DNA of 64,000 nucleotides, taken from assembly GCA_017549425.1 (NCBI GenBank), contig JAFYUV010000017.1, positions 136,750-200,749 on the forward strand, in the 5' to 3' direction. A program made the translations under genes and the position numbers. This DNA comes from Clostridia bacterium (GTDB taxonomy: Bacteria; Bacillota; Clostridia; TANB77; CAG-465). Below, piece after piece: positions 3-12,976 of this stretch. How positions within the stretch are numbered: position 1 is the stretch's first letter; each line of letters begins with the position of its first letter. The notes under the pieces were generated by a model. It worked only from the letters and a program-made list of their open reading frames with translations. It had not been told where the DNA came from and did no database searches.

Positions 3-569
3 CAAGACCCTAATATAATTCTTGTTGGAGAAATAAGAGACACAGAAACAGCAAAAACGGCTATAGAAGCTGGTCAAACAGGACACTTAGTTTTAACTAC
101 TATACATACAATTGATGCAATAGAAACTATTACAAGAATAAGAAAAATGGGAATAAGTGATTATGACGTTTCTTCTTCAATAGTAACCGTAGTATCTCAA
201 AGATTGGTTAGACAATTATGTCCTGAATGTAAAAAAGCTCATAAAATGACTAAAGACGAAAAAGAATATTTTGAAAAAGTTGAAAAAATTACAGGATATA
301 ACTTTGATTTATCTAAAGCAAATATGTATGAACCTGTTGGATGTAAACATTGTGGAAATACAGGGTTCTACGAAAGAACAGGTATATTTGAAATACTATG
401 CATAGATGAAGAATTAAAAGAAAAAATTGCAGCAGGAGCTTCTGCTATTGACTTAAGAAAATATGCTGTTGAAAATACAGAATATAAACCTTTAATAGTT
501 GATGCTGTACAAAAATGTTTAGACGGTATGACAACTATACCTGAAATTGAAAAGAAAATAGTTATTTAA
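3..569 (+). CDS. pilB: Type IV pilus / T2SS assembly ATPase (GspE/PilB family), C-terminal fragment; 5' end lies outside the window
   Basis: Frame-3 translation from the window edge reads ...ILVGEIRDTETAKTAIEAGQTGHLVLTTIHT..., followed by the C-terminal tetra-Cys motif CPECKK...CKHCGNTG typical of GspE/PilB. Confidence 0.85.
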   Translation, partial: QDPNIILVGEIRDTETAKTAIEAGQTGHLVLTTIHTIDAIETITRIRKMGISDYDVSSSIVTVVSQRLVRQLCPECKKAHKMTKDEKEYFEKVEKITGYNFDLSKANMYEPVGCKHCGNTGFYERTGIFEILCIDEELKEKIAAGASAIDLRKYAVENTEYKPLIVDAVQKCLDGMTTIPEIEKKIVI

Positions 570-593
570 TATAACACAAAAGAAGAGGTATTT

Positions 594-1682
594 ATGGAAA
601 AATTTTTAGCATTAGTTGAAAATGCTTTACAAATTGGAGCAACAGATATTCATCTTGTAAACGGGTTGCATCCACTATATAGGGTAAAAAGAACATTAAC
701 TAGAGATTTTAATATTGACGTTATGAATAAATATGATTTAGAAGGATTATTGGAGTCTCTTGTTGGAGATAGTCTTGAGCTTGTTGAGCAATTTGAACAA
801 GGAAAGAAACTAGACCTGCCTTATAGAGTAAATGAAAATGTTAGACTTAGAATAAATGCAAGTATGGCTGCAGGAGTTCCTACGTTTGCTATTAGAATAA
901 TTAGGAATATGCAAATTGATGTTGAAAGATGTAGGCTAGGTGAGATATTAGATAGGCTAAAAAAATACCATTCTGGTTTAGTTCTTATAACAGGTAGTGT
1001 AAACTCTGGAAAGACAACTACATTAAATGCATATGTGCAAGAACTAAATAAAAAAGAAAATAAAAAAATAGTTATGCTAGAGGAGCCTATAGAATATGTG
1101 CATGAATCTAATAAATGTGTAATTGTTCAAAAAGAAGTAAATTCAGCAACAGACGTTCCATCATATTATGATGGAGTTATAAATCTGTTAAGAGAGGATG
1201 CAGATATTGCTATAGTTGGAGAAATAAGAGATAGACAAACAATGGATGCGGTAGTAGATTTAGCCGAAGCAGGAGGTCTGGTTATAGGGACAATGCATAC
1301 CAGGTCTTGTGGAGAAACAATAGAAAGAATTTTATCTATGTATAATCCTAATGAACAAAAAGCTATAAAATATACTTTATCTAATATATTAAAATTAATT
1401 GTTTCTCAAAAACTGGTGAAATCTAATAAAAATGAAATAATAATGGTTCCAGAAGTGCTTGTATCTAATTCAACGATTTCTGCCTTAATTAGGCAAGATT
1501 CCTTCAGCATTTCAGAGATAAAAGATGCTATTCATTTGGGAAAAGAGCGCGGAATGATTAGTTTTGAAAAATCGTTTACAAAATTATTAAAAAGTAATAT
1601 AATAGACTTAGAATGTGTTAGAAATAACGTTGAAACTGAAAGTTATGACTTGATTTTAAACATGATGGGAGGGGATAGCTAG
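594..1682 (+). CDS. pilT: Type IV pilus retraction ATPase PilT
   Basis: 362 aa; Walker A GSVNSGKTTT; PilT/GspE secretion-ATPase fold; RBS AGAGG upstream. Confidence 0.8.
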   Translation: MEKFLALVENALQIGATDIHLVNGLHPLYRVKRTLTRDFNIDVMNKYDLEGLLESLVGDSLELVEQFEQGKKLDLPYRVNENVRLRINASMAAGVPTFAIRIIRNMQIDVERCRLGEILDRLKKYHSGLVLITGSVNSGKTTTLNAYVQELNKKENKKIVMLEEPIEYVHESNKCVIVQKEVNSATDVPSYYDGVINLLREDADIAIVGEIRDRQTMDAVVDLAEAGGLVIGTMHTRSCGETIERILSMYNPNEQKAIKYTLSNILKLIVSQKLVKSNKNEIIMVPEVLVSNSTISALIRQDSFSISEIKDAIHLGKERGMISFEKSFTKLLKSNIIDLECVRNNVETESYDLILNMMGGDS

Positions 1683-3013
1683 TGCCTGAATTTAGATATA
1701 GGGGAATGCTTAGAAACGGGAAAACAATAAGAGGTGTAATGACGGCAAGAAACAAAAGAGATGTTATAAAAAACCTAAAAACCTCTAGAATTCAACCTAT
1801 AAGAATAAGATCTAGGAAAAATGTTACTATTACTAATACTAAAATAGATTCTAAAAAGCTTATGAACATACAAGCTGATGTTGAGAGGACTAAAGTTTCT
1901 TCTAGAAAACCAGTACAGAAAAAAGGCTTCGGTGCTATTCTTACGTCAGATATTTCTTTTGGAATATCTAATAAAGACATACTAACTTTTACTAATAATT
2001 TATATATATTGAAAAAGGCTAAATTTAACAACATAGATGCTTTTGAATCTTTGTATGGAAGTACTGAGAATTCTAAGTTAAGAGATATTATAGATGATAT
2101 ATTAATAGGTATTGAGGGTGGTTACAAAATTCATGAAATGATGCAAATGTATCCTAAAGTGTTTCCGCCGTTGTACACAAACTTTGTAAGAGTTGGTGAA
2201 GAGTCAGGTTCCTTAGATAAAGCTTTACTATATGCAAGAGATTATGTTGAAAGCGATATGAAACTAAAAAAGCAAATAAGAGGAATTTTAATACCCAAAG
2301 TATTAATGTTTGTTGGTGTTTTAATAATTACTGTTATAGCGCTTTTGTGGGGAACACCTTTAATTCAAAATGTATATGATATGTTTGGGTCAGACAAAAC
2401 CTTGCCAAAAGCCACTTTAGTTGCTATTGATGTATCAAAATGGATTTTAGCAAATTGGTATATAGTGGTTACGGCAATACTCGGAATTATAGCGATTTTT
2501 ATTGCTTATGTTCGAACGCCACTAGGAAGATATCAAATAGATAGGATAAAGATAAGATTTCCTGTTTTTGGAAGATTAACTTTAAACATAATAACAAATA
2601 AATTCTTTAGAGCTATGTTATTAAATATTCGAAATGGTCTAAGAATACAGGAAGCGTTAGATGTTGCTAAGAGCGTAACAGACAATTATTATTTCTTGTC
2701 CTTAGTTGAAATAGGAAAGGGTAATTTGTTAGCCGGAGGTTCTTGGGTTGAACCCTTTGAAGCTGCTAAGGCTCTTCCACCGATAGCGATTCAGATGATA
2801 AACATTGGTATGAAATCTGATTTGGCTGAGATGATGGAAAAAGTTTCAGAGTATATACAACAAGAAATTGATGAAGCTATAGCAAAAACAGTAAAAGCAT
2901 TACCAGAAATTATGTATATTTTTATAGGTATCATATTAATATTCTTTGTAATAACTATAATGGTTCCACTTATGGAAGTATACATGGGTAACTTCTTGTT
3001 TGATATGATGTAA
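1682..3013 (+). CDS. pilC: Type IV pilus platform protein PilC (GspF family)
   Basis: 443 aa with two GspF-like repeats and three TM segments; GTG start overlaps the pilT stop. Confidence 0.8.
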   Translation: MPEFRYRGMLRNGKTIRGVMTARNKRDVIKNLKTSRIQPIRIRSRKNVTITNTKIDSKKLMNIQADVERTKVSSRKPVQKKGFGAILTSDISFGISNKDILTFTNNLYILKKAKFNNIDAFESLYGSTENSKLRDIIDDILIGIEGGYKIHEMMQMYPKVFPPLYTNFVRVGEESGSLDKALLYARDYVESDMKLKKQIRGILIPKVLMFVGVLIITVIALLWGTPLIQNVYDMFGSDKTLPKATLVAIDVSKWILANWYIVVTAILGIIAIFIAYVRTPLGRYQIDRIKIRFPVFGRLTLNIITNKFFRAMLLNIRNGLRIQEALDVAKSVTDNYYFLSLVEIGKGNLLAGGSWVEPFEAAKALPPIAIQMINIGMKSDLAEMMEKVSEYIQQEIDEAIAKTVKALPEIMYIFIGIILIFFVITIMVPLMEVYMGNFLFDMM

Positions 3014-3608: not shown

Positions 3609-3983
3609 TTATTTTACGTCTTTTATATCCGGTTTTGATATTAAAGCAAAAAGATATCCGAATATGATTGCTGCACTAATACCACCAGCTGCAGCTTTTA
3701 TACCTCCGGTAAAAATCCCTATGGCACCTTCTTTTTCCACTTCTTCTATAACTCCGGTGGCAAGGCAATATCCAAAACCAGAAATAGGCACAGTAGCTCC
3801 AGTTCCTCCAAAATCTACAATATATTGATAAATTCCAAGGCCTGTAAGAATTACTCCGGCTGTAACAAAGAATACTAAAATTCTTGCTGGTGTTAATTTT
3901 GTCTTATCTATAAGGATTTGACCAATAACACAAATTAAACCGCCTGTTAAAAAAACTTTTAAATATTGTATTAATATATCCAT
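3609..3983 (-). CDS. spoVAE: Stage V sporulation protein AE (SpoVAEb)
   Basis: 124-aa membrane protein with the ...FGGTGATVPISGFGY... SpoVAE signature; last gene of the spoVAC-AD-AE operon. Confidence 0.8.
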   Translation of the reverse strand: MDILIQYLKVFLTGGLICVIGQILIDKTKLTPARILVFFVTAGVILTGLGIYQYIVDFGGTGATVPISGFGYCLATGVIEEVEKEGAIGIFTGGIKAAAGGISAAIIFGYLFALISKPDIKDVK

Positions 3984-3992
3984 TTTAACACC

Positions 3993-5012
3993 TCATATAT
4001 TTTCTATAGCTACTGCGTGTGCAATAGAGGGAATAGATTCTCCTTGGCCTAAAGATACCGGGCTCATTAAAGCACCTGTAGAAATTAAAAGGACTTTATT
4101 TAAACTTTTGTCTAATAATTTTTTATATATAAATCCACTAAAAACAGAGGCACTACAACCGCATCCACTTCCACCGGCTTTTGTGTCTTGGGCAGAGCAG
4201 TCAAATATCATTAAACCGCAGTCGTTGTGAACATGAGAAATGTCTATTCCATATTTTTGTAATTGCTCTATTAGAATTTCTGAACCAAGTTTTCCTAAAT
4301 CGCCAGTTACAATTAAATCATAGTAATTTGCGTCACGCCCTGTATCTTCTAAATGAGTTATTATAGTATCAAAAGCAGCGGGCGCCATAGCTGCTCCCAT
4401 GTTTGCAATATCTGTTATTCCCATATCAATAACTTTGCCGGGAGTAGCATATGTAATTTTAGGATAATGATTTAATTTATCTTCTTTTGAATTTGAAATT
4501 AAAGTGGCTCCAGAACCTGTAACTGTCCATTGACCGGTAGGAGGAGTTTGAGTTCCTTGTTCTAGAGGAAGTCTAAATTGTCTTTCAGCTGAACAGAAAT
4601 GAGACGAGGCTGCTGCTATACAGTTTGTAGCATAACCAGCATTAACAAAAGAAGCAGCAAGTATATTGGCTTCAGAAAATGTAGAACAAGCGCCATATAA
4701 TCCAAAGAATGGAATTTGTAATTCTCTTAGTGCATAACCAGAGCTAATACATTGATTTAACAAGTCCCCAGAGAACATATACTCTATATCTTTGATATCA
4801 GTTTTAGACTTATTTAGAGCCATATTTACAGCATGCTGTATAAGTTTAGATTCTGCTTTTTCAAAGGAATCTTCACCAAAATACACATCATCAAGAACGG
4901 TATCAAAGAAGCCACTTAATGGACCAGATTTTTCTTTTGGACCAACAACACTTCCACATTCTCGAATTATAGGGGTGTTTTCAAATTTTATTGTTTGTTT
5001 ACCAATTTTCAT
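3993..5012 (-). CDS. spoVAD: Stage V sporulation protein AD (SpoVAD, thiolase-like DPA-binding protein)
   Basis: 339 aa; thiolase / beta-ketoacyl-synthase-like sequence typical of SpoVAD. Confidence 0.9.
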   Translation of the reverse strand: MKIGKQTIKFENTPIIRECGSVVGPKEKSGPLSGFFDTVLDDVYFGEDSFEKAESKLIQHAVNMALNKSKTDIKDIEYMFSGDLLNQCISSGYALRELQIPFFGLYGACSTFSEANILAASFVNAGYATNCIAAASSHFCSAERQFRLPLEQGTQTPPTGQWTVTGSGATLISNSKEDKLNHYPKITYATPGKVIDMGITDIANMGAAMAPAAFDTIITHLEDTGRDANYYDLIVTGDLGKLGSEILIEQLQKYGIDISHVHNDCGLMIFDCSAQDTKAGGSGCGCSASVFSGFIYKKLLDKSLNKVLLISTGALMSPVSLGQGESIPSIAHAVAIENI

Positions 5013-5021
5013 ATTTTCCTC

Positions 5022-5483
5022 CTAACTGCAAAGATTAATTAGCCAATAGACAAGACCTACTAAAATAGAACTACCTATTCCATAAACCAGGACAGGTCCT
5101 GCAACTTTAAACATATTAGCACCAATTCCAAGGATAATCCCTTCTGTTTTATATTCAATAGCGGGAGAAACGATTGAATTTGAGAAACCGGTTATTGGTA
5201 CTATAGAGCCGGCACCAGCAACTTTCCCTATTTTTGCATATAATTTTAAGGAGGTAAGAAGAGCAGCTATAAAGATTAACGAAATAGAAGTTAATGTAGA
5301 AGCAGACTTTTTATCTAAACCATTATTCATTCCAAAATCCATAATTATTTGCCCAATAACACAAATGAATCCTCCTATAATGAAAGCTATAATACAGTCT
5401 TTTATAATATTACTTTTAGGAGATTTGTTTTCAACGTACTCTTTGTATTGTTTGTCATTCATTCCCATTTTTGTATAATTCAT
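5022..5483 (-). CDS. spoVAC: Stage V sporulation protein AC
   Basis: 153-aa four-TM protein; RBS GTGGTGA upstream; first gene of the spoVA operon on the minus strand. Confidence 0.85.
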   Translation of the reverse strand: MNYTKMGMNDKQYKEYVENKSPKSNIIKDCIIAFIIGGFICVIGQIIMDFGMNNGLDKKSASTLTSISLIFIAALLTSLKLYAKIGKVAGAGSIVPITGFSNSIVSPAIEYKTEGIILGIGANMFKVAGPVLVYGIGSSILVGLVYWLINLCS

Positions 5484-5598
5484 AAAATCACCACAAATAT
5501 TATTTGTGAAAAAATAGTAAAATATGCAAAATTGTTTTAATTAAAGAAAATAATTGACTTTATCTATTTCATATATTAGTATATTGGTAGGTGTTAAT

Positions 5599-6447
5599 AT
5601 GAATAAATATACAAATAATGAAATAGAACATATAATATTGGAAAATGGAATTGAATACTTACAATTTAAAAAATTAAAAAAATATAACGATAAATTAATT
5701 CATGCCACATTTTTACGTCATGGTGGAGAAAGCGCGGGAATTTATAACAGCTTAAACTTAAGGTTAGCTAGTAAGGATGAAAATGTTTTAAAAAATTTTA
5801 AAAAAATAGCAGAAGTATTAGATGTAGACGAAAAAAATATTTGTAAAGCAAGGCAAACACATACTGCTAACGTGCTAACAATAGATTCAACTAACAAAGA
5901 AGAATTTTCTATCTTTTCAAATAATAGTTTGGAAGCTGATGCATATCTTATGAGAGATAAAGATATTTATTCTATAATTACAACAGCTGATTGTATTCCA
6001 ATTATTATGTACGATAAAGAGCAAAATATAGCTGTAAATATTCATAGTGGTTGGAAGGGAACAATACAAAAAATATATATGAAGGCTTTAGAAAAATTAA
6101 TTATAAATTATAATTCAAAGCCAGACAATATAATAGTGTGTCTTGGACCAAGCATTGGTAAATGCTGTTTTACAAGTAAAGAAGATACTTTTAAACAAAA
6201 GTTTATTGACATTTGGCCTTATGAAGAAGATTATATTTACTATGAAGAAGATTGTGAGACATTTCATATAGATATGAAGAAGAAAATAATTGAAGATTTA
6301 ATAATAGGTGGAATAAAAGAAGAGAACATATCTAACGCAGAAATTTGTACTAAATGTAATAACACAGACTTTTATTCATATAGAGTTACAACTCAAAATA
6401 AAGAGGAAGATTATGCAACTTTTGGAACTGTAGTAGGTTTAAAATAA
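5599..6447 (+). CDS. pgeF: Peptidoglycan editing factor PgeF / YfiH (DUF152, Cu-oxidase_4) purine-nucleoside-phosphorylase-like enzyme
   Basis: Start at MNKYTNN; conserved ...IHATFLRHGG...HTANV...ADCIPII...HSGWKG... pattern of YfiH-family proteins. Confidence 0.75.
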   Translation: MNKYTNNEIEHIILENGIEYLQFKKLKKYNDKLIHATFLRHGGESAGIYNSLNLRLASKDENVLKNFKKIAEVLDVDEKNICKARQTHTANVLTIDSTNKEEFSIFSNNSLEADAYLMRDKDIYSIITTADCIPIIMYDKEQNIAVNIHSGWKGTIQKIYMKALEKLIINYNSKPDNIIVCLGPSIGKCCFTSKEDTFKQKFIDIWPYEEDYIYYEEDCETFHIDMKKKIIEDLIIGGIKEENISNAEICTKCNNTDFYSYRVTTQNKEEDYATFGTVVGLK

Positions 6448-6466
6448 ATAATGGGAGATGTTTATT

Positions 6467-6799
6467 ATGGAAAAAGAGATTAATAAATATAGCGCTGTTT
6501 TTTCAGGACAAGAACTAAAGTTAGAAGATGAAGAATTTAATGGGGGAGTTATAACTGCAGTTTTTGGGGGCGTTGATTTGGATTTATGTAGAACAGTTAT
6601 AACAAAAGATGTAGAAATAAAAGCCAGGTGCTTTTTTGGCGGAATAGATATAATATTGCCAGAAGATATAAACGTAGAGGTAACGTCTTTCGCACTATTT
6701 GGAGGAGTAACAAACAAAAAAAGTAAAAAAAATAAAAGTGACAAAAACACGGTTACAGTAAGGATTGTAACTATGTTTGGAGGAGTAGATATAAAATAA
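6467..6799 (+). CDS. Small soluble protein with a LiaF-like C-terminal domain (DUF2154)
   Basis: Four spaced repeats of (A/C/L/M)FGG(V/I)D (AVFGGVDL, CFFGGIDI, ALFGGVT, TMFGGVDI) as in the LiaF/YvqF C-terminal domain; start chosen at the second ATG, which has RBS spacing. Confidence 0.45.
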   Translation: MEKEINKYSAVFSGQELKLEDEEFNGGVITAVFGGVDLDLCRTVITKDVEIKARCFFGGIDIILPEDINVEVTSFALFGGVTNKKSKKNKSDKNTVTVRIVTMFGGVDIK

Positions 6800-6824
6800 T
6801 TTTTGAAAAAATTACATAAAACAC

Positions 6825-6853
6825 TTGACATAAAGTTTTTGAGGAGTTACAAT
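6825..6853 (+). promoter_or_regulatory. Consensus sigma-A promoter upstream of the leader uORF and ABC transporter
   Basis: TTGACA, 17 nt, TACAAT. Confidence 0.6.
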
Positions 6854-6950
6854 GAAGTTATGATGGTAATTAAATCCAGGTAGATTTACTTATTGTCTAA
6901 AGATAAACTAAAAATTGACATATGAATTGAAAAAGAAGGAGGAAATTGGT

Positions 6951-7046
6951 ATGACAATGTGGTTTGAACTTAATAAATCTTATATATTACCTGTTGAAGT
7001 GAGATTCGCTTCAGCTGAATTTGTCGTACCTAGATTATCCTTATGA
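6951..7046 (+). CDS. Candidate regulatory leader peptide (31 aa: MTMWFELNKSYILPVEVRFASAEFVVPRLSL)
   Basis: Strong RBS AAGGAGGAAATTGGTATG; lies between the promoter and a terminator hairpin upstream of the ABC ATPase; absent from the ORF track because it is under 60 aa. Confidence 0.3.
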   Translation: MTMWFELNKSYILPVEVRFASAEFVVPRLSL

Positions 7047-7094
7047 TATAGGTGTAATTTTGGCATAAATAAATTACACAAAAACAAGAAAATT

Positions 7095-7140
7095 AAGGTG
7101 TATAGGTAGACGAAAGTTTTACTTATGCACCTTTTTTATA
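7095..7140 (+). terminator. Intrinsic terminator / attenuator hairpin in the ABC transporter leader
   Basis: 15-bp stem AAGGTGTATAGGTAG / TTACTTATGCACCTT (three G-U pairs), 9-nt loop, then TTTTTTAT; ends 30 nt before the ATPase start; a second hairpin GGTGTAATTT/AAATTACACA lies just upstream at 7049-7080. Confidence 0.5.
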
Positions 7141-7169
7141 ATTATTTTTATTTTAAGGAGGGCTTTATT

Positions 7170-8156
7170 ATGAAAAAAGCTATAGTTGTTTCTAATTTGA
7201 CCAAGGTGTTCGAGACGAGGAAAAAGAATAAGGAAGGTAAAAAAGAAAAAGTAAAGTTTACAGCAGTAGACAACATTAATTTTAAAGTTGAACAGGGAGA
7301 AATTGTAGGGTTTATAGGTCCCAACGGTGCAGGCAAATCTACAACAATAAAGATGATGACAGGTATACTTTATCCAACAAGCGGAGATGCGTGTGTTGCA
7401 GGCTTTAATCCTTGGAGAGAAAGGAAGATTATGACATACAAAATAGCTACTATGTTTGGTCAGAAATCTTCTCTTATTGCTCATCTTCCAGTTATAGAAA
7501 GTTATAGATTGCTTGGAGCGATTTATGACATTGAAAAAAATGTTTTGGAGGAAAGAATACAGGAAATTGTCGAATTTTTTGGCATATCTCACCTCATAGA
7601 ACAAAAAGTTAGTAGTTTATCTTTAGGACAGAGGATGATTTGCGAAGTGGCAGCTGTTACTTTGCATAGACCAGAAATTATATTTTTTGATGAACCTACA
7701 ATAGGTTTGGATCTTGTAGCCAAAAAAAAGGTTCGAGACATGATTGAAATGCTCAACAAAAAATATAACACAACAATATTTATAACAAGTCACGATATTT
7801 CAGATATTGAAAAGCTTTGCTCTAGAATAATAATTATAAATCATGGCAAGGTTATGCTTGACAATAGTATTTTGGAGATAAAGAAGAAATATTTGACTTT
7901 AAAAAAGCTTGATGTAACTTTTGATTGTGACGTAGATGTTAAAACAGCTGAAGATAAACTTAAGACCTTTAATTATGCATTTGAAGGACAAGATAAAGTA
8001 TCTATTGAGTTTGATGAGTCTTTGATAAAGCCAGGTAAGATAATTGCAAAACTTTTGGAAGTAGGAGATATAGCAGATATGACTATTTCTACAACTTCAC
8101 TTGAAAACATTATATACGATATTTACACGGATAAATCAAAGGAGGAAGAAACATGA
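7170..8156 (+). CDS. ABC transporter ATP-binding protein with a roughly 100-aa C-terminal extension (module 1)
   Basis: Walker A GPNGAGKST, signature LSLGQRM, Walker B IIFFDEPT; start at MKKAIVV with RBS AAGGAGGG. Confidence 0.85.
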   Translation: MKKAIVVSNLTKVFETRKKNKEGKKEKVKFTAVDNINFKVEQGEIVGFIGPNGAGKSTTIKMMTGILYPTSGDACVAGFNPWRERKIMTYKIATMFGQKSSLIAHLPVIESYRLLGAIYDIEKNVLEERIQEIVEFFGISHLIEQKVSSLSLGQRMICEVAAVTLHRPEIIFFDEPTIGLDLVAKKKVRDMIEMLNKKYNTTIFITSHDISDIEKLCSRIIIINHGKVMLDNSILEIKKKYLTLKKLDVTFDCDVDVKTAEDKLKTFNYAFEGQDKVSIEFDESLIKPGKIIAKLLEVGDIADMTISTTSLENIIYDIYTDKSKEEET

Positions 8157-8926
8157 AAAAGTATTTAGCCTTTATGACCACAACTATTAAAGAGGAAATG
8201 AATAGTATTACTAATATGTTTTCAACATATTTTGCTTTTATTATTCACATTCTTATGTTTTCGTGTTTGTGGGATTTTGTACTTGAAGGAAAGACCATGG
8301 CGGGGTTTACTAAAACAGATCTGATTTGGTATGCAATTATGGCTGAAATAATAACGTACTCGTTTAATTATTATTATAAAAAAGTTGCATACAAAATTGA
8401 AAGTGGAGATTTCGCATATGGCATGAGTAAGCCTTATAATTTTTTGGCAAGAATTATTGCCGAAGGTATTGCTGAACTTCCTATGACAATTATGTTTATT
8501 GCTATTGGAAGCGTGTTGGGCCTTATTTTAGTTGGACCGTTAAAAGTTAGCGCAGTGGGGTTAACATGTACATTGTGTATTATACTTATTGCCGTTATGA
8601 TTTTGCTTTGTTTGAATATTTTAGTTGGAATGATTTCAATTTGGATAGGAAGAGATGTTTCATCTATTTGGCTTTTGATAGGCAAGATGATGTTAATATT
8701 TGCATTTACTCCATTGGAACTTTTCCCTAAAGTTATTCAAATACCGCTTCTTTGTTTACCAACAACACATGTTATATATACACCGGCAAAGTTATTTGTA
8801 CATTTTTCGCCGTGGCTGTTTGTTAAGTCTTTAGGCTTTGAACTTATATCTTTGGGTATAATAGTGTCAATTTTAACAATCGTATATATGAAAGGAGTAA
8901 AGAAACAAAATGTTGAGGGTGTTTAA
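8153..8926 (+). CDS. ABC-2 family transporter permease (module 1, permease A)
   Basis: 257-aa polytopic membrane protein translationally coupled to the ATPase. Confidence 0.7.
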   Translation: MKKYLAFMTTTIKEEMNSITNMFSTYFAFIIHILMFSCLWDFVLEGKTMAGFTKTDLIWYAIMAEIITYSFNYYYKKVAYKIESGDFAYGMSKPYNFLARIIAEGIAELPMTIMFIAIGSVLGLILVGPLKVSAVGLTCTLCIILIAVMILLCLNILVGMISIWIGRDVSSIWLLIGKMMLIFAFTPLELFPKVIQIPLLCLPTTHVIYTPAKLFVHFSPWLFVKSLGFELISLGIIVSILTIVYMKGVKKQNVEGV

Positions 8927-9719
8927 ATCTATAGGTACTTATCTTAAATATATAGTTCTTTGTGTTAGTCTTAATGTTAGAAGTAGCATATCTAATAAAA
9001 AGAGCTTTATAATTCAAACGGTTTCAATGTTTATAAACAACTATGTATTTTTGCTGTTTTGGCAGATACTGTTTAACAACAAGGGCGGAAGTATAAATAA
9101 TACCACTATGGATGACATCATATATTTGTGGTCGATACCTACGATTGCATTTGGTATATGCTTCTTCTGCTTTGGTGGTGTTGAAAATCTTTGTAGAGAC
9201 ATTGTTGATGGCAATCTTGATGTATATTTAACTAAACCTAAGCATAGCTTAATTTCTCAGCTTACGTCATACTCTGTTTTGTCTGCTATGGGAGATTTGC
9301 TTTTTGGTTTGGTTTGCGGGGTAATAGTTTCAAGATTCAATATATTGAAGTTTTTGTTGATAATTTTGTTGTCGGTAATTGCAGGTATAGCATTTGTATG
9401 TATAAATGTTATAGTAAGACTGTTGTCTTTTTGGTTTGGAGATTTAACGAATTCAACAAAAAGATATACAAGTACAGTATTAGTTACATTAACTATTTAT
9501 CCTGAGCAGATGTTTCCAAAATTTTTGAAAATTATGATGTATACAGTTATTCCGGCTATATATGTAGCTCATATTCCAGTAAGAATAGCAAAAGGAGAAA
9601 CATTTTTGTGGTTTTTGATTCTTTTAGCTGTAACTGTATTACTTGTTATAATTACGTTTTGGATGTATAGCAAGGGAATTAAAAAATATGAAGGGAATAG
9701 TGGTGTAACTAGAAGGTAA
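8910..9719 (+). CDS. ABC-2 family transporter permease (module 1, permease B)
   Basis: 269-aa polytopic membrane protein overlapping the previous gene. Confidence 0.7.
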   Translation: MLRVFKSIGTYLKYIVLCVSLNVRSSISNKKSFIIQTVSMFINNYVFLLFWQILFNNKGGSINNTTMDDIIYLWSIPTIAFGICFFCFGGVENLCRDIVDGNLDVYLTKPKHSLISQLTSYSVLSAMGDLLFGLVCGVIVSRFNILKFLLIILLSVIAGIAFVCINVIVRLLSFWFGDLTNSTKRYTSTVLVTLTIYPEQMFPKFLKIMMYTVIPAIYVAHIPVRIAKGETFLWFLILLAVTVLLVIITFWMYSKGIKKYEGNSGVTRR

Positions 9720-9720
9720 T

Positions 9721-9756
9721 ATATAACGGGGTAAATTTACCCCGTTATATTTATAT
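9721..9756. terminator. Palindromic terminator after ABC module 1
   Basis: Perfect palindrome ATAACGGGGTAAA/TTTACCCCGTTAT followed by TTATAT; then a 3x AAAAATACA tandem repeat. Confidence 0.55.
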
Positions 9757-9877
9757 AAAAAATACAAAAAATACAAAAAATACATATATAACTATTTACT
9801 TAATTCTTAAAATATGTTAAATTTTATTTATTAATACAATTTAGTATTAATAAATAGATATAAGGGGGATAAATAAT

Positions 9878-10267: not shown

Positions 10268-10426
10268 TAAAAAGCACAAAAAATTGTTTACATTATAATT
10301 TTTTTGTGATAGACTTTTAACATTCGTGAAAACACATTATATGGAAACTTAAATTAAGATATAAACATCTGAAAAATAGTTACCCAAGGTAATGTGTTTT
10401 TTTGTATTTTAGAAAGGGGGAAAATA

Positions 10427-11407
10427 ATGTATATTTCGGTTAAGAATCTTAACAAAACGTTTAAGATTCAAACTAAGAAAAAAGGGTTGCTAAATGCAAT
10501 AAAAGCTTTTATAAAGCCTAAATATAGGGAAGTAAAAGCCGTAGACGATATTTCATTTAGCATAAACAAAGGAGAAATTGTGGGGCTCATAGGACCTAAC
10601 GGGGCAGGTAAATCTACAACTATAAAAATGCTTTGTGGAATACTTTATCCAGATAGTGGAGAATGTATGGTGGCAGGCTTAAATCCTTTTGAAGATAGAA
10701 AAAAATACACTTCAAAATTAGGTGTAGTATTTGGCCAAAAATCTCAACTTTGGTGGGATATACCCGTAATCGAATCATTTGAATTACTTAAAAATATTTA
10801 TAAAATACCAGAAGATGAATATAAGAAAACGAAGAATGATTTGGTAGAGAAGTTGGATATAAAGAAAATACTAGATGTTCCAGTTAGGCAATTAAGTCTT
10901 GGACAAAGAATGAGATGTGAAATAGTAGCGTCGCTATTGCACAATCCAGAAATTTTATTCTTAGATGAACCAACAATTGGTTTAGATGCAATATCTAAAG
11001 TACAACTTAGGCAGTTTATAAAGGAAATAAACAAAGACCGAAAGATAACAATTATTTTAACAACGCATGATATGACAGACATAGAACAATTAGCTAAAAG
11101 AGTAATGGTAATAGGCAAAGGAAAACTGTTATACGATGGAAGTTTAAAAGCAATCAAAACAAAGTTTCAATCGTCAAAAAAACTAGAAATAATATACAAT
11201 AGTTTAAAAGAAATCCCTAATGTAAAATCAAAAATAATAGAGCAAGATAGTAAAAGAATTCTGTTTGAAGTAGAAAATAATTCTAAAGAAACCATTTCTA
11301 ATATTATAGAAAAATTTAGTAAAGTGTGTCAAATAGAAGATATCAATATATACGAGAACAACATAGACAATATTATATTAGAACTGTATAAGGAGTATGA
11401 AATATGA
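10427..11407 (+). CDS. ABC transporter ATP-binding protein, paralogue of 7170-8156 (module 2)
   Basis: Start at MYISVKNL with RBS AAAGGGGGAAAATAATG; Walker A GPNGAGKST, LSLGQRM, ILFLDEPT; the two ATPases are clear paralogues, with conserved blocks across much of the ATPase domain. Confidence 0.85.
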   Translation: MYISVKNLNKTFKIQTKKKGLLNAIKAFIKPKYREVKAVDDISFSINKGEIVGLIGPNGAGKSTTIKMLCGILYPDSGECMVAGLNPFEDRKKYTSKLGVVFGQKSQLWWDIPVIESFELLKNIYKIPEDEYKKTKNDLVEKLDIKKILDVPVRQLSLGQRMRCEIVASLLHNPEILFLDEPTIGLDAISKVQLRQFIKEINKDRKITIILTTHDMTDIEQLAKRVMVIGKGKLLYDGSLKAIKTKFQSSKKLEIIYNSLKEIPNVKSKIIEQDSKRILFEVENNSKETISNIIEKFSKVCQIEDINIYENNIDNIILELYKEYEI

Positions 11408-12207
11408 GGGGATATATATCATATTTTAAAACTGTGTTGTTAACTAATTTGCAGTATAAAATAGCTGCGTTAGCAGGACTTTGTACACAGTTTTTTTGGG
11501 GATTTTTACAAATATTCATATACGAAGCGTTTTATGAGGGAGTAGGAGATAATGCTCCAATAGTATACGGCGATTTGGTAGATTATGTGTGGCTTCAGCA
11601 AGCGTTTTTTGCCTTAATATATATTAGACATAGAGATGATGAACTTGCTAATAGCATAAAAAATGGACAGATAGCTTATGAACTAGTAAGGCCATATAAT
11701 TTATATTTTTGGTGGTATATAAAGTGTATTGCTAAAAAATATGCTAGTGTTGCTCTAAGATTCTTTCCAATTATTTTTACAGCACTACTTCTACCTGAAC
11801 CATATAATTTGTCTAGTCCTGATTCTTTAGTAGCTTTCTTGTTGTTTTTATTAGCTTTGGTGCTTGGTTCATTGGTTTTGACAGGAATAATTGTTATACT
11901 TCAAAATATAATGTTCTTTACTTTGGAAGATAAAGGAATAAATTCAGTTATAAATACAATTGCAGAGTTATTAGCGGGCTTAATTTTACCAATACCACTA
12001 TTACCAGATGTTTTAAAAGCAATTGCAAGTGCACTTCCGTTTAGGCTTATAGGAGATTTGTCTTTTAGAATTTATTCTGGAAATATTCCGATTAAAGAAG
12101 CGACAATTAATATATTGTTTCAATTATTATGGATTTGTATACTAGTGATTGTAGGATATTTATTAACTAAAAAATCTACGAAAAAATTACAAATACAAGG
12201 AGGTTAA
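11404..12207 (+). CDS. ABC-2 family transporter permease (module 2, permease A)
   Basis: 267-aa membrane protein with an overlapping start. Confidence 0.7.
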   Translation: MRGYISYFKTVLLTNLQYKIAALAGLCTQFFWGFLQIFIYEAFYEGVGDNAPIVYGDLVDYVWLQQAFFALIYIRHRDDELANSIKNGQIAYELVRPYNLYFWWYIKCIAKKYASVALRFFPIIFTALLLPEPYNLSSPDSLVAFLLFLLALVLGSLVLTGIIVILQNIMFFTLEDKGINSVINTIAELLAGLILPIPLLPDVLKAIASALPFRLIGDLSFRIYSGNIPIKEATINILFQLLWICILVIVGYLLTKKSTKKLQIQGG

Positions 12208-12208
12208 A

Positions 12209-12976
12209 ATGTTTAAGTACATATCGATGCATTTGAAATCTCAATTAGAATATAAGTCTTCGTTTATATTACTTAGTGTATCACAAATATTAACTTTTCT
12301 AACATATTGTTTAACTTTTTATTCTTTGTATGAGAGATTTGGAGCAGTGAAGAAATTTAGTATATACCAAGTAATGATTTGTTTTAGTATTGTGCAGTTT
12401 GGAGAAAGCTTTTCAGAAGCGTTACTTAGAGGGTTTGATAAATTTTCTGAATTGATAAAAAGTGGTAAATTTGATTTGTTACTCATAAGACCACAAAATA
12501 TTTATTTACAAGTAATTGGTTCTAAAATGGAACTAAGTAAAATAACAAAGTCGTTTTTTTCAATACTGTTATTAATATATGCTATTATAAAGCTTAAGAT
12601 TTATTTAAATCCGATAAATCTGTTAATAGTATTGTTAATGTTAGCTGGTAGTTGTATTATTTTTGCTTCAATATTTGTACTTGGAGCTGCGCTGTGTTTT
12701 AAAACGGTAGAAGGGTTAGAAATTGTAAATATCTTTGTTTATGGAACAAGAGATTTCGCACAATATCCGATAGGAATGTATAATAGGGTGATACAAATAT
12801 TTTTTACGTATTTAATACCAATGGCTATTGCAACATATTTTCCAATGCTATATATAACAGGACAAGTTACTAGCATTTGGTATGCTGTTATGCCACTTTT
12901 AACTTTACTTACTCTTATTCCATCATGTATTATATTTAATTGTGGAGTCAAGAGTTATAAAAGCTGTGGAGGATAA
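12209..12976 (+). CDS. ABC-2 family transporter permease (module 2, permease B)
   Basis: 255-aa membrane protein. Confidence 0.7.
   Translation: MFKYISMHLKSQLEYKSSFILLSVSQILTFLTYCLTFYSLYERFGAVKKFSIYQVMICFSIVQFGESFSEALLRGFDKFSELIKSGKFDLLLIRPQNIYLQVIGSKMELSKITKSFFSILLLIYAIIKLKIYLNPINLLIVLLMLAGSCIIFASIFVLGAALCFKTVEGLEIVNIFVYGTRDFAQYPIGMYNRVIQIFFTYLIPMAIATYFPMLYITGQVTSIWYAVMPLLTLLTLIPSCIIFNCGVKSYKSCGG

Follow-up and report, generated by a model that had tools for sequence, protein, structure and literature searches.

The question raised by this locus is how the genes of an ATP-binding cassette (ABC) exporter are controlled when an open reading frame (ORF) of short length and an intrinsic terminator stand between these genes and their promoter. 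The leader in question lies at 6825–7169 in a stretch of 64,000 nucleotides (nt) from a Clostridia bacterium (assembly GCA_017549425.1, contig JAFYUV010000017.1, positions 136,750–200,749), which is referred to below as the window. The initial annotation of this stretch had suggested that the leader might be a ribosome-mediated attenuator located in front of an ABC exporter. This idea is strengthened by two results presented below, namely the existence of mutually exclusive helices and that of an open frame running through the switching segment in 16 leaders. The leader is probably a ribosome-read transcription attenuator, in which the position of the ribosome chooses between termination and read-through.

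The switching segment, called A (7012–7044, on the + strand like all the leader elements described here), is about 30 nt long and lies inside the leader ORF (codons 21–31), with its core UUGUCGUACC at 7021–7030. It is complementary to two partners: S (6935–6964), which includes the ribosome-binding site (RBS), the start codon, and the first codons of the leader ORF, and D (7093–7115), which consists of the 5' arm and the loop of the terminator and with which A builds the antiterminator. The predicted energies of the two duplexes in the window are −21.9 kcal/mol in the case of S:A and −18.0 kcal/mol in that of A:D. In the S:A duplex, GGUAUGACAA (6948–6957) pairs with the core of A, and AAGGA (6936–6940) pairs with UCCUU (7038–7042). 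In the A:D duplex, UAGGUA (7103–7108) pairs with UACCUA (7027–7032), GAC (7109–7111) with GUC (7023–7025), and AAGG (7095–7098) with CCUU (7039–7042); A resembles the 3' arm of the terminator. Mutually exclusive structures of the kind which the initial annotation had proposed to look for are thus predicted, A pairing with either S or D by means of overlapping bases. The antiterminator shares bases with the terminator, and the anti-antiterminator shares bases with the antiterminator, as is the case in the attenuator class.

The elements from which the initial annotation had been built up were all confirmed. The near-consensus sigma-A-type promoter is present at 6825–6853, where the −35 box TTGACA (6825–6830), a 17-nt spacer, and the −10 box TACAAT (6848–6853) match 11 of the 12 consensus positions. 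This is the top-scoring site within 5500–8500, a region in which promoter-like sites overall are no more frequent than expected (18 found vs. 17.9 expected), and transcription is predicted to start at about 6860. The upstream ORF (6951–7046) consists, as proposed, of 31 codons plus the stop codon (7044–7046); it encodes the peptide MTMWFELNKSYILPVEVRFASAEFVVPRLSL, and its AUG (6951) is preceded by the strong Shine-Dalgarno (SD) sequence GAAGGAGG (6935–6942), the gap between GGAGG and AUG being 8 nt. The intrinsic terminator (7095–7139) has a stem of 16–17 pairs (7095–7111 with 7116–7133) followed by U6 (7134–7139), and the hairpin at 7095–7133 is the sole terminator-like site within 5500–8500 (0.5 expected). 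The AUG of the ABC ATPase (7170) lies 30 nt past the U tract, as had been noticed, and has its own SD sequence, AAGGAGG (7155–7161). The hairpin of 10 base pairs (bp) which had been reported to follow the ORF is present at 7052–7079 (7052–7060 with 7071–7079) and measures 9 bp. This spacer hairpin, located between A and D, is not the antiterminator and merely lies at the apex of A:D, whereas an antiterminator does exist as a long-range helix, formed by the distal portion of the ORF (7019–7044) with 7093–7115. Two other hairpins occur inside the ORF: P3 (6993–7015, 10 bp), just 5' of A and at the apex of the S:A helix, and a weaker 6-bp hairpin (6961–6979) 5' of P3. The predicted fold of the leader is far more stable than those of shuffled sequences (z = −4.8, 6860–7175, 316 nt), and so is that of its central part (z = −5.7, 6940–7145).

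The leader was compared in a set of 16 non-redundant loci including the window, all of which come from uncultured Clostridia metagenome-assembled genomes (MAGs) and metagenomes. These loci were obtained mostly via look-ups of individual ATPase homologues, which span 58–100% identity; a scan of genome contigs gave two orthologous loci, and a scan of metagenome contigs gave three loci, one of which carries the leader. The orthologous ATPases of the other leader loci are 58–72% identical to that of the window. The same ordered set of elements was found upstream of the ATPase gene in all 16 leaders: the promoter, a 5' hairpin, GGAGG, AUG, an ORF of 28–49 codons, and the terminator. A −35 box TTGAC(A/T) and a −10 box, mostly of the extended TGn type, occur at the equivalent place in every leader, and the spacing between GGAGG and AUG is always 6–9 nt. 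The terminator consistently consists of a canonical hairpin (−8.3 to −16.9 kcal/mol) and a U tract, and begins 22–63 nt past the stop codon of the ORF. At every locus with downstream sequence, three transporter genes follow the leader. This conservation is the strongest evidence that the features of the leader exceed what could be expected by chance.

The gene located upstream of the leader is variable: it encodes RF-1 at loci L020, L029, and L035, Sua5 at L038 and L039, and other products elsewhere, and an ORF resembling LiaF_C precedes the leader only in the window. Since the upstream gene differs between loci, what is conserved as a unit is the leader together with the operon, the link with LiaF being incidental. 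The envelope-stress module which the initial annotation had proposed on the basis of this link was therefore not borne out. No regulator gene was found to be conserved beside the operon at the orthologous loci examined.

The leaders split into two groups in which S and A are paired in different registers. Attempts to define one consensus structure for all 16 leaders failed for this reason, and the pair counts given below were therefore made on an alignment of 10 group-1 leaders only. The energies of the duplexes in the 16 leaders range from −12.5 to −22.8 kcal/mol (S:A) and from −10.7 to −20.4 kcal/mol (A:D), and in all of them, the bases of A which pair with S overlap those which pair with D. 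Matrices comparing A with D and S with A across lineages in long windows were too noisy, and a 32-nt A segment was used instead, which was compared with 1000 dinucleotide-preserving shuffles per leader. None of the shuffles matched the real A on both partners in 11 leaders and at most five did so in four more, while the number was 19 out of 1000 in L034, the most divergent leader. In the case of the window, 0/1000 shuffles were as good for both partners.

In the group-1 alignment, the cells of the structure combining S:A and the terminator were paired in 91% of cases, vs. 32–50% when the strands were slid; nine pairs in this structure are changed on both sides, a result reached by 0/500 shuffles. 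S:A alone has 87% of its cells paired and A:D 90%, as compared with 24–53% in slid controls, which is also the range obtained with A:D by itself. In the terminator, 99% of the cells are paired and compensatory changes occur in 6/11 pairs. The core of S:A and the terminator were also found independently by RNAalifold. As regards A:D, the pair formed by alignment columns 110 and 240 is compensatory, being U-A in eight leaders and C-G in two. In L035, only A:D explains the swap from U-A to C-G, because the G in question sits in the terminator loop. Another compensatory change separates the window (UACCUA/UAGGUA) from most of the group-1 leaders (UAUCAAUA/UAUUGAUA). The group-2 leaders retain A:D with other sequences, such as AUACCUUA/UAAGGUAU in L036. 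A hairpin differing in sequence from P3 occurs at the equivalent place in the other leaders, judging by eye and with no pair count.

A separate observation concerns the group-2 leaders L023, L026, L027, and L036, which carry at the A motif the sequence TTATTT, matching the NusG-dependent pause motif TTNTTT. This sequence lies directly 5' of the conserved UUGUCAUACC, just past P3, and no TTNTTT motif was found at A in the group-1 leaders, window included. It may be a pause site synchronizing the ribosome and the polymerase in one subgroup.

The leader ORF runs through A in all the leaders, and its stop codon always lies 3' of A, starting 7–62 nt past the A-core motif. From the AUG to the end of A, the frame contains no stop codons among the 507 codons of the 16 leaders, as compared with 36 and 61 stop codons in the other two frames over the same span; the chance of an equally long open frame arising from the base composition is 1–10% per leader. 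The peptide itself was compared in pairs of close leaders in terms of the nonsynonymous (dN) and synonymous (dS) substitution rates. The dN/dS ratio of the ORF is 0.3–3.8 (about 1), vs. 0.07–0.12 in the case of the ATPase; dS is 0.07–0.6 in the ORF vs. 0.9 to more than 2 in the adjacent ATPase, whose dN is below that of the ORF. The peptides are 28–49 amino acids long, with unrelated C-termini, and differ between the two groups of leaders. The nucleotide motif UUGUCRUAYC inside the ORF is common to both groups, and it is read in phase 1 in nine leaders (…FVV S/P…), in phase 0 in five (…LSY…), and in phase 2 in L038 (…CRI…). The 31-residue peptide of the window had no NCBIfam match, and no conserved nascent-peptide stalling motif of the kind present in ErmCL, ErmBL, and MsrDL was found across the leaders.

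The fact that the frame has no stop codons and yet shows a dN/dS ratio of about 1 indicates that selection keeps the frame open and maintains the RNA sequence, but not the peptide. The open frame and the consensus SD sequence with its proper spacing argue strongly that the ORF is translated, and these comparisons indicate that translation itself matters rather than any particular peptide. The ORF would then be a track for the ribosome and not an arrest peptide: a specific arrest motif cannot be what the signal relies on, given that the sequence of the peptide varies freely. The leader provides a natural example of selection for an open frame which ignores the peptide, and could serve as a test case for tools designed to separate coding constraints from RNA constraints.

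While the elements, their mutual exclusivity, conservation, and covariation, and the selection acting on the open frame and not on the peptide emerge from the sequence comparisons, the following scheme is what we infer about the input and the direction of the response. Transcription would start at about 6860, and A would then be offered two mutually exclusive partners. Pairing of S with A would form an anti-antiterminator, leaving the terminator D:E free to form and to stop transcription at 7134–7139, whereas pairing of A with D would form an antiterminator and allow the polymerase to continue through the genes of the ABC exporter. If a ribosome is held in the start region or on the first 15 codons or so, it would occupy S or the loop between S and A and block S:A, so that A could capture D as it emerges, turning the operon on. 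A ribosome keeping pace with the polymerase would cover A, or would sit in the interval between A and D, and the terminator would form, keeping the operon off. With no ribosome on the leader, S:A would form as soon as A is made, resulting in termination. Slow or blocked translation would therefore turn the operon on regardless of the sequence of the peptide, and the natural signal might be ribosome-targeting drugs. If slowed translation is indeed the input, these exporters are candidates for a tolerance to ribosome-targeting compounds which would be both intrinsic and inducible in uncultured Clostridia.

Two conserved parts of the leader call for a separate description. P0 (6862–6897, GAUGGUAAUUAAAUC/GAUUUACUUAUUGUC) is the 5'-terminal hairpin of the transcript; it begins 2–3 nt past the site where transcription is predicted to start, and a conserved CAAG(U/A)GAUAA comes after it. 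P0 is the element of the leader most highly conserved in sequence, the unpaired loop bases included: a single copy of its motif TAAATYCNNRTARATTTA is present in each of the 19 matching orthologous loci, as well as in the window, and its apical sequence UAAAUYC-NN-RUARAUUUA is nearly invariant. The inner stem shows a swap between C-G and U-A from one group of leaders to the other, and the outer stem varies in sequence and stays paired. This conservation goes beyond the needs of a plain 5' stabilizer. P0 could possibly be a 5' stabilizer or a site recognized by a protein, an RNase, or another factor. The idea that it might be a DNA operator was provisionally set aside, in view of the absence of a conserved regulator gene nearby and of the covariation of the outer stem without any conservation of its sequence. 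The other part, U (6905–6929, core UUGACAUAUGAAUU at 6915–6928), is a degenerate copy of A which can pair with S. The U:S duplex has an energy of −11.6 kcal/mol in the window; it was found to be better than dinucleotide shuffles in 12/16 leaders and is absent from four. U may be a decoy or a trap for the start region. A long-range helix joining U to the stretch just 5' of the terminator (U:C') was also considered and was rejected, since it is no better than shuffles in 15/16 leaders.

Several points weigh against the attenuator scheme described above. The source is an uncultured Clostridia MAG, and the switch is predicted from its sequence. The covariation of A:D is modest in group 1, where two pairs are changed on both sides and 46/500 shuffles reach the score. 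At equilibrium, the full-length RNA keeps its terminator under every ribosome mask; a purely thermodynamic switch was therefore rejected, as the masked ribosome footprints never removed the terminator from the full-length folds, and the switch would have to be kinetic. Transcripts cut before the 3' arm of the terminator fold with D on A, and the contrast between the cut and full-length RNAs in these folding models is as expected of a kinetic, co-transcriptional switch. When U:S is included, the cut transcripts prefer the antiterminator even without a ribosome, which makes the default state ambiguous. The stop codon lies 28–62 nt beyond the A-core motif in most of the leaders, so that a terminating ribosome would not be directly over A, and the off state would then have to rely on a steric block of the A:D loop. 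Lastly, P0 has no role in a model based on the position of the ribosome.

In another reading of the same architecture, the leader would be a sensor of translation capacity: U would trap S once both have been made, and the untranslated leader would read through, only coupled translation sweeping across A allowing the terminator to form. Initiation failure and stalling would both switch the operon on in this case. We regard this inverted default as rather unlikely. The unconstrained minimum-energy fold of the cut transcripts does consist of U:S plus A:D in most of the leaders, and U:S outdoes the shuffles in the 12 leaders mentioned above, but it is missing in the other four; S:A is 8–10 kcal/mol more stable than U:S and has a free toehold on the SD sequence in the U:S loop, by which it could displace U before the polymerase reaches D. 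The attenuator proposed here and the inverted version alike predict that the operon is induced when translation is impaired. A tentative extension of the attenuator, which we find conceivable without favoring it, would be a peptide-independent sensor of initiation capacity and elongation speed acting via the five alternately complementary segments U, S, A, D, and E, to which P0 would add a second input, such as a protein, an RNase, or a ligand. If this is true, the exporter would be controlled by a two-input attenuator in which the ORF's own RBS serves as a switch strand.

P0 could also be taken as the starting point for an explanation without a ribosome as the sensor, in which a trans-acting factor or a small ligand binds P0, CAAG(U/A)GAUAA, and U and sets the availability of S, the ORF being only part of the expression platform. 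That P0 is so highly conserved, down to its loop bases, and is left over by the ribosome model speaks for this explanation, as do the unusual length and structure of the leader (z = −4.8). It is nevertheless unlikely, given that no Rfam family was matched in the window or in eight orthologous loci, that the operon has no conserved regulator gene as its neighbor, that the region from S to A, which would be the aptamer junction, is poorly conserved in sequence, and that there is clear selection for an open frame across A, which a pure riboswitch would not need and which this explanation does not account for. The strong SD sequence and the conserved open frame would also suit a genuine small-protein gene, the peptide being exported by the transporter or acting with it, while a leaky terminator sets the ratio of peptide to transporter; many bacteriocin loci show the same order of small gene, terminator, and ABC exporter. 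The dN/dS ratio of about 1 with constrained synonymous sites, a sole conserved motif which is a nucleotide motif read in three frames, the range of 28–49 amino acids with unrelated C-termini, the lack of an NCBIfam match to the window peptide, and the fact that no signal peptide or hydrophobic stretch was noticed when the peptides were read by eye make this very improbable. It is hardly credible, finally, that the leader is an amino-acid-supply attenuator of the trp/his type responding to one scarce charged tRNA: the layout with a leader ORF, an anti-antiterminator, an antiterminator, and a terminator is the same, but no codon was found to be repeated or enriched at a set position common to the 16 peptides, and it is an exporter, not biosynthetic enzymes, that the regulated genes specify.

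Comparisons with known systems help to situate the leader. The erm and cat attenuators act on translation by unmasking a downstream RBS, and they need a specific nascent-peptide motif. The present leader resembles them in having a short ORF upstream of a resistance-type gene, with ribosome stalling as the putative signal, and differs from them in that its predicted output is transcription termination and its peptide is not conserved. Attenuators of the Escherichia coli trp type have alternately complementary segments pairing as 1:2, 2:3, and 3:4, in which an early-stalled ribosome leads to the antiterminator, and a ribosome at the end of the ORF, or none at all, leads to termination (see also the discussion in PMC4191407). 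The present leader likewise has alternately complementary segments and a proposed antiterminator upon an early stall. It has no regulatory codons, unlike the trp-type leaders; its segment 1 is the RBS and start codon and not an internal coding stretch, and it includes an extra, fifth segment upstream (U) as well as the conserved 5' hairpin.

The likeness to vmlR, bmrB-bmrCD, and erm leaders drawn in the initial annotation held for the first two, which have been established by experiments and are the closest relatives in kind, and not for the stalling peptide of the erm type, in view of the dN/dS ratio, the three phases of the motif, and the variable length of the peptide. In vmlR of Bacillus subtilis, an anti-antiterminator hairpin holds the start of the upstream ORF, and a ribosome held on the ORF prevents this hairpin from forming, so that an antiterminator blocks the intrinsic terminator (Takada et al., 2022; PMC9226507). 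Expression is induced there when an initiating ribosome stalls, and changes in the peptide sequence only modulate the induction (PMC9226507). The start of the ORF lies likewise within the anti-antiterminator in the present leader, for which the same switching logic is proposed here. The vmlR ORF, however, has three codons inside SL-1, as compared with 28–49 codons traversing the 3' strand of the anti-antiterminator here; vmlR encodes an ABCF ribosome-protection factor and not a membrane exporter; the present leader showed no hairpin that would sequester the SD sequence of the downstream gene, and TTNTTT occurs in it only in group 2; and the two leaders show no sequence similarity.

In bmrB-bmrCD of B. 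subtilis, an ABC multidrug exporter is placed under the control of a leader ORF several tens of codons long by means of anti-antiterminator, antiterminator, and terminator structures, and lincomycin, chloramphenicol, and erythromycin slow translation and bring about read-through (Reilman et al., 2014; PMC4191407). The present leader shares with it an ORF of this size in front of an ABC exporter and the three-structure attenuator. In bmrB, however, all three structures, including the terminator, lie inside the 162-nt ORF (PMC4191407), whereas the terminator lies past the stop codon here, and the RBS of the ORF itself provides the anti-antiterminator with its 5' strand. The exporter BmrCD is, moreover, a heterodimer of a fold class unlike that of the ABC-2/DUF990 system in the window.

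Searches in Rfam 15 yielded no family in the leader region at E values up to 10, nor in the window at the gathering scores, nor in eight orthologous loci; the trpB motif came closest in the window region, with 20.3 bits vs. a gathering score of 59 (E = 5.1). No description of the leader family or of its association with DUF990-type exporters was found in literature searches. The leader family, this association, and the frame-independent conservation appear not to have been described so far, while the kind of mechanism is already known. The leader adds a comparatively validated family to the small set of ribosome-read attenuators in Firmicutes, and ties ribosome-read control to the ABC-2 exporters of the DUF990/Ethyl Viologen Exporter (EVE) type, a family on which there are almost no functional data.

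The regulated operon (7155–9719, + strand) consists of the ABC ATPase gene (7170–8156) and the genes of two PF06182 (DUF990) permeases (8153–8926 and 8910–9719). The family search gave PF00005 once and PF06182 twice, that is, one ATPase and two membrane proteins, which is the gene set of the DUF990/EVE type (TC 3.A.1.141). Only two members are named in TCDB 3.A.1.141: EvrABC, which exports viologens in Synechocystis, and an uncharacterized system from Thermoanaerobacter (PMC5417439). PDB sequence searches gave no solved relative of the permease encoded at 8910–9719, and only generic ABCA-type and unnamed ABC ATPases, with no functional lead, in the case of the ATPase. The operon is followed by a GC-rich hairpin, ACGGGGTAAATTTACCCCGT, which is probably its terminator, and then by three direct copies of AAAATACA; the hairpin and the copies lie at 9727–9785.

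A paralogous operon of the DUF990 type is located 1 kb downstream, with an ATPase gene at 10427–11407 (42% identical to 7170–8156) and permease genes at 11404–12207 and 12209–12976. It has a promoter-like site at 10287–10315 (TTTACA, 17 nt, TG-extended TAGACT) and a leader of about 110 nt which includes neither an upstream ORF nor a terminator. The two neighboring paralogous operons are evidently under different control. L033 contains a distantly related operon, with a permease showing 31% identity, where a different leader of about 130 nt (1260–1521) has a consensus promoter followed by a strong terminator, GCACGGAGTCAC...GTGTCTCCAGTGC plus T6, just before the ATPase gene. This leader has no upstream ORF and gave no meaningful Rfam match, and it may be another, unrelated attenuator or riboswitch acting on the same transporter family.

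Upstream of the leader in the window, the ORF of 113 amino acids at 6458–6799 matches only the C-terminal LiaF domain (PF09922, E = 2.6e-10). Its end is separated from the leader promoter by 26 nt that contain no terminator, and transcripts of this LiaF-like gene could therefore extend into the leader in this genome. Further upstream, reading the translations led us to identify type IV pilus assembly genes at 147–3013 (the C-terminus of PilB, PilT-like, and PilC-like) and, on the minus strand, sporulation genes resembling spoVAC, spoVAD, and spoVAE at 3609–5483. This context of pilus and sporulation genes suggests that the host is a spore-forming member of the Clostridia.

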